In this document: positions 28,381-53,423 of the stretch, one piece after another | Numbering within the stretch: the stretch's first letter is position 1 | How the letters are laid out: every line of letters begins with the position of its first letter | Source: Planctomycetota bacterium | GTDB taxonomy: Bacteria; Planctomycetota; B15-G4 | Direction of reading: 5' to 3' | Assembly: GCA_038212275.1 (NCBI GenBank) | Contig: JBBQUR010000006.1 | Coordinates: forward strand, 128,001 to 192,000 | Length of the DNA: 64,000 bases | The notes under the pieces: generated by a model | Told to the model about the DNA's origin: nothing | The model's input: the letters and a program-made list of their open reading frames with translations, nothing else | Database searches by the model: none | Program-made: the position numbers and the translations under genes

Positions 28381-31300
28381 GTGGTGACCACCGGCACGGG
28401 ATCGCCGCGCATCGAGGACTCGTTCCCGCTCGCGCCCATCCAGGAAGGGATGCTGTTCAACAGCCTCTACGCGCCGGGCTCAAGCGTCGACGTGATCATC
28501 GCCGTGCTGGAACTCCACGAGGAGCTCGACGAGGCGCTGTACCTGCAGGCGTGGCAGCACGTCGTCGACGGCAACCCCGCGCTGCGCACGTGCTTCCGCT
28601 GGCAGGGCCTCGAGCAACCCTGTCAGGAGGTCTGGCGCGGCGTCTCGCAACCCTGGCGCAGTGAAGACTGGTCGGCCTTGTCCAAGGTGGAGCAGGAGCT
28701 CCGCTGGCAGGCGCTGCTGGTGCGCGAGCGCGGCACCGGCCTCGACATGGCGCGACCGCCGCTCACGCGCCTCGTGCTCGTGCGCCTCGGGCCGGAGCGT
28801 CACCGCATCCTGTGGGTCTATCACCACGCGGTGTTCGACGGCCTCGGGATGACGCTCGTGCTGTCGCAGGTGTTCGCCGCCTGGCGCGCCCTGCAGCGCG
28901 GCGAACGACCGGTCGTGCCGCCCGCGCCGACGCAGCGCGAGCTGGTGCAGTGGATGGCGCAACGCGATCCCGGCCGCTCCGAGCACTTCTGGCGCGAACG
29001 CCTCGCCGGCATCGAGTCGCCGACGCGGCTCGGCTTCGATCGCGGCGACGACGAGGTCGCGATCGCGGGGCGCCACGAGACGTGTCCGAGCCAGGCCAGC
29101 CAGCTCTCCGAAGCCGACACGGCGGCGCTCGCTGCGTGGGTGGCGAGACACGGGCTCAGCCTGAACCTCGTGCTGCAAGGCGCGTGGGCCGTCGTCCTCA
29201 GCCGCTGCAGCGGCGAGCGGCGCGTGCTCTTCGGCGTCGTGAAATCGGGCCGCCGTTCCAGCCTTCCAGGCGCCGACCGGCTGGTCGGCGTGGTGATGAA
29301 CACGCTGCCCGTGGTCGTGGACGTGGACCCTGCCGCCGAGGTCCTGGCCTGGATGGCGCAGCTGAAGGAACAATGGACCGCGCTGCGCGAACACGAGCAC
29401 ACGCCGCTGGTGCGCATCAAGGAGTGGAGCGCGATCGACGGCCGCCGCCCGCTCTTCGAAACCAGCCTCTGCACCGACGCGCTGGACCTCACGGCGGCGC
29501 TGCGCGCGCAGGGCGGCGACTGGAGCGGCTGCACGGCCGACGCCTTCGGCCAGCCCGTCGTGCCCGTCTCGCTCAATGCCTACGGCGGCTCGCGCCTGCT
29601 GCTCCGCATCAACTATCACGAGCTGCGCGTGAGCCAAAAGGCCGTCGCGCGGATGCTGGGACATCTGCAGACGGTGCTGGCCGCCTTCGTTCACGGCGAG
29701 GCGGCCGTCGTCGGGGACCTTCCCATCCTCACGCGGGAGGAGCGGCGCGAGGCGCTCTCGCTTGCCGGGCCGTCGCGCGCCATCGCACCCGACGCCACCG
29801 TGCACGGCCTCGTCGAGGCGCAATGCGCGCGCACGCCGCAGGCCGTCGCCGTCGGCGCGGACGAGGGACAGCTTTCGTATGCCGAGCTCGACGCACGCGC
29901 CGACCGGCTTGCCGCCTGCCTGCGCGCCCGCGGCGTGGGCCCGGACCGAATGGTCGGCCTGTGCGTCGAGCGCGGCCTGCACCTGCCCGTCGCGATGCTC
30001 GGCATCCTGAAGGCCGGCGGCGCGTGGGTGCCGCTGGACCCGGCCTTCCCGGCCGAGCGTCTTGCGCTGGTGCTGCAGGACACGGCGGCGCGGATCCTCG
30101 TGACGCAGCGCTCGCTGCTCGGTGCGCTGCCGTCCTTCGACGGCGAGGTCCTCTGCATCGACGAGCTGCCGGAGCCCTCGCCCGCCGCGCCTGCGCAGGC
30201 TCCGGCGACGGTGCACGCCGGCCATCTCGCCTACGTCATCCACACCTCGGGCTCCACGGGCCGGCCCAAGGGCGTGCAGCTTTCTCACGGCGCGGTGGTG
30301 AACTTCCTGCTCGCGATGGCCGCGCAACCGGGGCTGCGTCCGCACGACGTGCTTCTCGCCGTGACGACGCTCTCCTTCGACATCGCGGTGCTCGAGCTCC
30401 TGCTGCCGCTGTGCGTCGGCGCACGCGTCGAGATCGCCTCGCGCGAGGTCGCAGGCGACGGACTGCTCCTGCGCCGCAAGCTGGCCGCGACGCGCGCCAC
30501 GGTGATGCAGGCCACGCCCTCGACGTGGCAGCAGCTCATCCAGTCCGACTGGCGCGGAGACGGCAGGCTGGTGATGCTCTGCGGCGGCGAGGAACTGCCG
30601 CGCTCGCTCGCGCACGAGTTGCTGCGGCGCGGCGGCGCGCTGTGGAACATGTACGGCCCGACGGAAACCACGGTCTGGTCCGCGGCCGGTCGCGTGGTGG
30701 CGTCCGACGACGGTCCGGAGCGCGCGGCGCCCGAGCAGCCGGTCGAACTGGGCCCGCCCATCGCCAACACGCAGTTCGTCGTGCTCGACGACGGGAATCG
30801 CCTGCTGCCGCGCGGCGTGCCGGGCGAACTCTTCATCGGCGGGGCCGGGCTTGCGCGCGGCTACCTGAATCAGCCGGCGCTCACCGCCGAACGCTTCATC
30901 GACAGTCCGTGGCCCGACGAGCTGCCCGGGCGCCTGTACCGCACGGGTGACCGCGCCTGCCGCGACGAGCAGGGACGCCTGCTCTTCCTCGGTCGCGTGG
31001 ATCGACAGGTCAAGCTGCGCGGGCATCGCATCGAGCTGGGCGAGATCGAATCAGTGCTGCGCGAGACGCCCGCCGTGCGCGAGGCCGTCGTGCTGGCGCG
31101 CGAGGACACGCCGGGCGACAGGCGTCTCGTCGCCTACGTCGTGCCCGCCGAGGGCGCCGCGTGCGAGCTGCAGGCCGTGCGCGACGCCCTGGCCGCGCGC
31201 CTGCCCGACTACATGCTGCCCACGGCCATCGTGCCGCTGGTGCGCCTGCCGCTCGGCCCCAATGGCAAGCTGGACCGGCGTGCGCTGCCCGCTCCGCAGG

Positions 31301-53423: not shown

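Follow-up and report, generated by a model that had tools for sequence, protein, structure and literature searches.

A hybrid nonribosomal peptide synthetase-polyketide synthase (NRPS-PKS) gene cluster of about 25 kb lies within a 64,000-nucleotide stretch of DNA from a Planctomycetota bacterium, here called the window (G000:C6:128001-192000; genome of 4.65 Mb in 40 contigs, 91% complete, GC ~72%). The cluster is far from either end of its 244-kb contig and is therefore not cut off. Domains were called by Pfam searches of open reading frame (ORF) translations, with E-values in the locus from 1e-11 down to 0. These revealed six modules of condensation (C), adenylation (A) and thiolation (T) domains, together with one module of ketosynthase (KS), acyltransferase (AT), ketoreductase (KR) and acyl carrier protein (ACP) domains. 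The module order, C-A-T-C-A-T at 28381-35022, TubC_N dock-C-A-T-KS-AT-KR-ACP at 35019-43305 and three C-A-T modules at 43302-53423, reproduces that given in a first-pass annotation made from the sequence alone. Both four-nucleotide gene overlaps which that annotation described are also present in the sequence (GTGA at 35019-35022 and ATGA at 43302-43305). Its count of three genes, on the other hand, needs correction, as the middle gene is divided between two ORFs that overlap and lie in different frames (35019..40751 and 39103..43305). The features of the locus are as follows.

28381..35022, + strand: gene 1 (2213 aa), C1-A1(Gly)-T1-C2-A2(Pro-like)-T2, with the acidic C-terminal tail DDDEVIEL
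28414-29751, 31360-31542, 31606-32976 and 34753-34944, + strand: gene 1 domains C1, T1, C2 and T2, respectively
35019..39062, + strand: gene 2, upstream frame, with a TubC_N-type dock, C3, A3 (Ile code), T3 and the N-terminal part of the KS
35034-35177, 35286-36602, ~36672-38186, 38265-38456 and from 38640, + strand: dock, C3, A3, T3 and KS of the upstream frame, respectively
39060..39063, + strand: frameshift site, four bases where orthologues have one codon, the extra base lying in the run GCGC
39064..43305, + strand: gene 2, downstream frame, with the remaining KS, AT, KR, ACP and an acidic C-terminal docking tail
~40216-41052, ~42052-42639 and 42928-43119, + strand: AT, KR and ACP of the downstream frame, respectively
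43302..53423, + strand: gene 3 (3373 aa), a basic N-terminal docking helix, C4-A4-T4-C5-A5-T5-C6-A6(Gly)-T6 and a tail of ~50 aa
43386-44783, 46722-48059, 50007-51422 and 53082-53267, + strand: gene 3 domains C4, C5, C6 and T6, respectively

The frameshift in the ketosynthase

Gene 2 is broken by a +1 frameshift about 30 codons upstream of the active-site Cys of the KS. The Pfam model for the KS N-terminal domain (252 positions) is divided by it, with positions 2-129 matched in the first frame and 158-252 in the second. The upstream frame stays open, out of register, to a stop at 40751, while the second-frame ORF (39103-43305) begins at a GTG at 39103. When 38640-39402 is read in both frames, the first ends in ...LLIAAGGLA and the second carries on as AVISSINDFLTTRVSYKLNLRGPSMNLQTACSTS. 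The site itself is a GC-only run, GGCGCGCGG. It was placed by blastx against a 4348-aa ORF of a genome from the same family but another genus (G012), in which the first frame is aligned up to 39059 (residue 2919) and the second from 39064 (residue 2921); thus, four bases stand for one codon. A database protein, P0072, is likewise continuous across the KS region, and its alignment locates the site less tightly.

Public contigs (Logan) were compared with positions 34000-44000. A contig from the probable source run, X1 (6712 bases, depth ~21), matches 38655-44000 with 0 differences over 5.3 kb and contains the extra base; a second, k-mer-based assembly of those reads thus has it too. Short contigs from two activated-sludge runs of one other study, X2 and X3, match the cluster at 94-98% identity. 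In either run a single contig crosses the site (depth 3 and 4, respectively), omitting one base at 39063 and carrying the same three flanking substitutions. With this base absent, gene 2 again reads in one frame, and the encoded residues are similar to those of G012. Contigs from a soil run, X4, do not cover the site.

The rest of the genome was screened with a frameshift detector based on the frame signal given by GC content at third minus second codon positions (GC3 minus GC2). A loose version gave 87 candidates, of which a six-frame control kept only 1. The strict version, which adds head, tail and six-frame controls, returned one candidate in 4.65 Mb, namely 39060-39063. Its sensitivity was 24% (72 of 300 simulated single-base indels in long ORFs). 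Since the strict screen flags this site only, the genome is not riddled with frameshifts. Among 39 flanking ORFs scanned with Pfam, 20 gave a family match and, likewise, no family model was split over two frames. GC3 is 0.89-0.91 on either side of the shift, and this undiminished coding signature, with no other lesion seen, fits a recent event. Overall, the frameshift is quite likely to be real. Inactivating mutations, which the first-pass annotation had regarded as damaging to its proposal if widespread, are present in the form of this one lesion and are not widespread.

Domain content and predicted product

Genes 1 and 3 are uninterrupted across 16.7 kb, and core motifs are retained throughout the cluster: HHxxxD in 6/6 C domains, the A3 motif TSGSTGxPK in 6/6 A domains and GGHS in 7/7 carriers. 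The KS retains TACSTS (Cys), CHGTAT and SNMGH (the two His), and the AT has GHSVG and HAFH, the latter presumably denoting the malonyl type. The KR has TGGLGGMG, conforming to the TGGxGxxG motif, and the catalytic K, S, Y and N. Of the hallmarks of an NRPS/type I PKS assembly line, the locus thus has ordered C, A and T domains with core motifs, a KS Cys-His-His set, an AT GHSxG and carriers. It departs from them in the broken frame of gene 2 and in showing no chain-release domain or linked release enzyme. Pfam scans of the cluster ORFs returned no epimerization (E), methyltransferase (MT), heterocyclization (Cy), thioesterase (TE) or reductase (R) family, which bears out the earlier description. 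A profile search of the genome gave seven Condensation matches, all inside the locus, which represent six domains because C6 is split by an insertion of ~29 aa. Ten carrier domains were found in the genome, seven inside the cluster and the other three as small stand-alone ACPs.

In-frame tandem repeats occur at 33462-33548, 37047-37115, 50246-50319 and 52598-52656, with periods of 15, 36, 15 and 18 nt and 1.9-5.8 copies. The resulting low-complexity insertions fall in the loop ahead of the A3 motif in both A2 and A3, within the N-terminal portion of C6 and, in the last A domain, between motifs A6 and A7. The insertion in the last A domain is missing from the G012 orthologue.

For substrate prediction, the six A domains were aligned and the ten code positions were taken from motif anchors, with what we take to be the GrsA position numbering, and the procedure was repeated by script. 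The codes obtained are listed below.

A1: DILQLGMVWK, Gly
A2: DVQFIAQVVK, Pro-like
A3: DAFFLGVTYK, Ile
A4: DILQVGGVYK, Gly-like
A5: DGMHVGGQAK, a residue 'X', position 278 hinging on a one-residue gap
A6: DILQLGMVWK, Gly

The five codes that the first-pass annotation had written out (A1-A4 and A6) were identical on re-derivation; A5 it had only called atypical. In passages of two sources, DAFFLGVTYK is read as Ile (10.1101/2022.12.15.520542; PMC2866473), and in part of a third DILQLGMIWK, the variant of A1 in orthologues, is read as Gly (PMC12283262). A core X-Gly-Pro-(Ile+C2)-Gly-like-X-Gly, in line with the earlier proposal (which had Gly/Ala at the fifth position), follows from the re-derived codes, and the predicted product is X-Gly-Pro-(Ile+C2, beta-OH)-Gly-like-X-Gly.

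The Ile-coded module and the PKS module recall a known arrangement. Passages of PMC12081711 trace the 3-hydroxy-4-amino unit of didemnin, burkholdac, hapalosin, thalassospiramide and nosperin to an NRPS module that precedes a KR-containing PKS module, with Ile giving isostatine in didemnin, and present this statine/isostatine route as accepted though experimentally unverified. As in such statine-type pairs, the Ile-coded C-A-T of the window is fused to KS-AT(malonyl)-KR-ACP, with neither dehydratase nor enoylreductase, and is followed by C-A-T. By analogy, the PKS module should give a 4-amino-3-hydroxy acid inside the peptide. Unlike those pairs, the cluster in the window is without a TE and its KS is frameshifted, and the likeness is one of domain layout, not of sequence comparison. 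The flanking modules of didemnin-type pathways also differ from those of the window.

Gene 2 begins with a match to TubC_N (PF18563) at residues 6-53 (47.6 bits against a cut-off of 26). An acidic tail at the end of gene 1, DDDEV(I/L)(E/D)L, is kept in 3/3 gene 1 orthologues. This acidic and hydrophobic tail and the TubC_N match resemble docking of the TubB/TubC type, and docking between genes 1 and 2 is predicted on this basis. A conserved C-terminal docking tail on gene 3 was also considered and rejected, because the G012 orthologue has no such 50-aa tail.

Chain initiation is less conventional. C1 scored 193 bits in the genome Condensation search against 291-350 for the other five C domains. 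It is 21-24% identical to C2-C6, which are 41-48% identical among themselves and have N-termini of the LSFAQQRLWFL type. Its best PDB matches are McyB C1 (8hlk, 260 bits), the first C domain of PvdL (9lcp, 228), TycB C1 (9bfd, 146) and SrfA-C (2vsq, 127). The first C domain of PvdL takes an acyl donor. C1 also has an N-terminal motif of the PLxPxQEGMLF type, which we take to be a DCL signature. In position, C1 corresponds to a starter C (Cs) domain, being the first domain of the first module and beginning ~13 aa after the start codon, as in 3/3 orthologues. In affinity it does not, as the solved starter C domains CDA-C1 (4jn3) and RzmA (7c1h) gave only ~36 bits. By these sequence matches, C1 belongs with C domains that accept a donor from another subunit, either D-aminoacyl or acyl. 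The window itself has no upstream carrier, E domain or acyl-loading module. Condensation and carrier searches of the 91%-complete genome found no other C domain, E domain, other NRPS or loading didomain. An acyl starter from primary metabolism is the best guess.

The chain also ends without an evident release step. The last 207 aa of gene 3 match only AMP-binding_C and PP-binding, with no TE, R or terminal C domain. A genome search for TE (PF00975) gave two weak matches, both elsewhere and neither above the cut-off (0/2), other hydrolase families lying outside that search. All of the domains of the cluster are of known kinds; what is unusual is the missing release function, the partnerless first C of the DCL clade and the frameshift polymorphism.

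Relatives, host and genetic surroundings

A scan of species-representative genomes (best 80 of 613 relatives) gave matches of 36-56% identity in cyanobacteria, Acidobacteriota, myxobacteria and others, with no orthologue. Metagenome contigs of the JGI scanned with the last module (best 80 of 603) gave 37-52% identity and again no orthologue. When 40 relatives were compared with the part from the dock to the KS, only G012 had long matches above 50%, under a strict prefilter by which weak matches may be missed. In tblastn searches of G012, gene 1 was matched at 68% on contig C126 and pieces of gene 3 at 60-61% on C64 and C101. On contig C213 the Ile module (49%) and the PKS (63%) share one continuous frame, and gene 3 (58%) comes after it. 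The codes read from G012 are Gly, DVQFIAQVVK, DAFFLGVTYK, Gly, DGVHVGGQAK and Gly. In G012 the terminal gene, too, stops ~10 aa beyond its T domain, and that genome likewise has no TE above the cut-off.

A large protein database contains the window's own gene 1; among the 120 matches listed there for it, three orthologues reached 68% and all others were at 45% or below. One of the three, P0124, is probably the G012:C126 gene itself. For the PKS part, P0072 (69%) was the sole protein of at least 60% identity among the 120 matches listed, and it has an Asn + Ile + PKS layout. No near-identical full-length gene 2 was found among the 120 protein matches listed. Taken together, the orthologues (G012, P0072, P0123 and P0125) are 68% identical to the window genes in gene 1, 63-69% from KS to ACP and 58-61% in gene 3. 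They have in common with the window cluster the Gly, Pro-like, DAFFLGVTYK and DG(M/V)HVGGQAK codes, a TubC-type dock and an end just past the T domain. G012 and P0072 differ from the window cluster in having an extra Asn-coded module before the Ile module, as well as a continuous KS. Unlike the arrangement in the window, the gene 1 orthologue of G012 also belongs to a second cluster, one closed by a terminal C domain. That cluster (G012:C126, ~15.4-33.4 kb) comprises a gene for an Asp/Asn beta-hydroxylase, the gene 1 orthologue, a dock-C-A-T-C-A(MT)-T-C gene, whose last A domain encloses a methyltransferase and which bears the terminal C domain, and a gene for a B12-binding radical SAM protein.

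The cluster had been called an orphan. This stands in so far as no relative with a characterised name appeared in the genome, protein or metagenome searches; it is qualified by the orthologues of 58-69% identity, which occur in G012, of the same family, and among a few metagenome proteins. Judged by these comparisons, the orthologue family is real, rare and uncharacterised.

The host was thought to be Planctomycetota-like, and RpoB supports this at phylum level. Its full-length identity to the RpoB of a Gemmataceae metagenome-assembled genome (MAG) is 66%, compared with 52% for a Chthoniobacterales MAG, 46-56% for a Pyrinomonadaceae MAG and 43-68% in three pieces for Archangium; another Planctomycetota MAG gave a partial match at 52%. 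In these four other genomes no full-length match exceeded 52%. PSD1 was found in one protein of the genome and in none of 14 control genomes, which is weak evidence on the host.

Upstream of the cluster, on the opposite strand, are genes for a BNR/sortilin-like protein and an Sfp-type phosphopantetheinyl transferase (PPTase), followed by two secreted proteins and methyltransferase and glycosyltransferase genes. Downstream are genes for an M32 carboxypeptidase, an O-methyltransferase, a PMT_2 protein, an S8 protease and PhoU/PhoR/PhoB. The flank Pfam scans found no exporter or regulator tied to the cluster, and MbtH had 0 matches in the genome, in keeping with the earlier statement that none of these is adjacent. 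The following features of the surroundings are relevant here.

25039..25737, - strand: predicted Sfp-type 4'-phosphopantetheinyl transferase, 2.6 kb upstream (Pfam ACPS 6.3e-19, AASDHPPT_N 5.6e-08)
21942-23417 and 23455-24852, - strand: two adjacent paralogous secreted proteins with no Pfam match

On its family matches, the predicted protein at 25039-25737 qualifies as a putative carrier-priming PPTase. The two secreted paralogues have a common C-terminal domain of ~130 aa (63% identical), which is also found beside the G012 NRPS clusters. A tie between the cluster and these proteins was rejected, since the domain has 87 tblastn matches on 23 contigs and with so many copies its adjacency looks like chance. 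A 14/28-nt tandem repeat of ~5 copies lies at 53483-53560, in the 146-bp spacer between the convergent gene 3 and M32 carboxypeptidase gene. Further away, 3907-6831 (- strand) encodes a 974-aa secretin with TPR repeats; the large ORFs on either side of it (1103-3901 and 6828-8681) have no Pfam match.

Interpretation and alternatives

We favour, at a probability of about 0.7, the reading that the locus is a seven-module assembly line in which the KS frameshift marks an allele that lost its function recently, the pathway being intact in close relatives. In the intact pathway, the nearby Sfp-type PPTase would prime the carrier domains. C1 of gene 1, as a DCL or acyl-accepting domain, would place a starter, probably acyl, on Gly, and Pro would be added next. 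The acidic tail of gene 1 would then dock on the TubC-type domain of gene 2, which would add Ile, and KS-AT(malonyl)-KR-ACP would extend and reduce the chain to a 4-amino-3-hydroxy (isostatine-like) unit. Gene 3 would add a Gly-like residue, a further residue and Gly. From the frameshifted allele, the first frame would produce dock-C-A-T, ~140 residues of the KS and an out-of-frame stretch ending at 40751, leaving the active-site Cys, AT, KR and ACP unjoined. As the start codon of gene 3 overlaps the stop codon of the second frame, translation of gene 3 may suffer too. The KS frameshift would therefore prevent the PKS module, and probably also the translationally coupled gene 3, from being made as a working enzyme, and the cluster is probably inactive in this genome.

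Several points weigh against this reading. The platform and library type of X1 are not on record, and a read error common to the assembly and the Logan contigs is conceivable. Contigs conceal minority alleles, so that intact copies may coexist in the sample, and the relatives' allele is represented by one low-depth contig in each of two runs from a single study. Substrate calls are drawn solely from the specificity codes. Of six codes searched for in the full-text literature available, among them the orthologues' variant of A1, four had no occurrence, including A4 and A5. The KR carries neither LDD nor W, the motifs that mark KR stereochemistry. C1 resembles DCL-type domains rather than solved starter C domains, and with no acyl-loading gene nearby the acyl starter is a guess. 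Since no release enzyme was found, the intact allele, too, might depend on an additional partner or be non-productive.

The leading alternative is that the extra base arose in sequencing or assembly and that the organism has an intact three-gene cluster. In its favour, the site is a GC-only run, all other domains are intact with no signs of decay, and the base is seen only via X1, the probable source run, whose library type is not recorded. Against it, the independent k-mer-based contigs reproduce the base at a depth of ~21 with no difference over 5.3 kb. The strict screen, even at 24% sensitivity, does not suggest an indel-prone assembly, and no split family model was seen among the 39 flanking ORFs. 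An error is thus considered rather unlikely. It is hardly credible, by comparison, that the split is functional, whether through two proteins that reconstitute the KS or through a programmed +1 ribosomal frameshift. A GTG is available at 39103 in the downstream frame and both parts retain their coding signature, but the break falls within the KS N-terminal domain, ~30 codons ahead of the catalytic Cys, and no slippery motif was seen at the site. Moreover, the G012 ORF and P0072 are continuous and a relative 94-98% identical is without the base. To our knowledge, no other KS has been described as divided at this point, which also counts against this possibility.

The frameshift might instead be one lesion of an old, generally decaying relic, in which the missing TE and loader and the loop insertions are all products of erosion. 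The absence of TE, loader and MbtH and the low-complexity in-frame repeat insertions in C6, A2, A3 and A6 are in line with such decay. However, the C-first start is kept in 3/3 gene 1 orthologues and the G012 terminal gene likewise ends ~10 aa after its T domain. As the start and the end are common to the orthologues, they are family traits. With every catalytic motif intact and genes 1 and 3 still open over their whole length, a relic is very improbable. A more far-reaching proposal is that the cluster belongs to a small Planctomycetota family, confined to one lineage, that makes an isostatine (transition-state-mimic) peptide from a DCL-clade C start to a bare T end by an undescribed start and/or release route, with the frameshift as a natural on/off polymorphism between populations. 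In that case the N-terminal C domain may, for example, act in trans on the final carrier, or release may fall to an enzyme that has escaped recognition. This proposal is regarded as distinctly unlikely.

As biology, the locus is a routine orphan cluster of a well-understood kind, with a few uncharacterised orthologues. Since the copy in this genome is probably dead, expression work should use an intact allele or an orthologue, and the starter and the chain-release step are to be found before such work. The statine-like unit is described in part of PMC12081711 as the pharmacophore of aspartic-protease inhibitors. Few Planctomycetota natural products have been linked to genes, so that any complete assembly line is a target for mining, and this cluster predicts a peptide with a statine-like unit.

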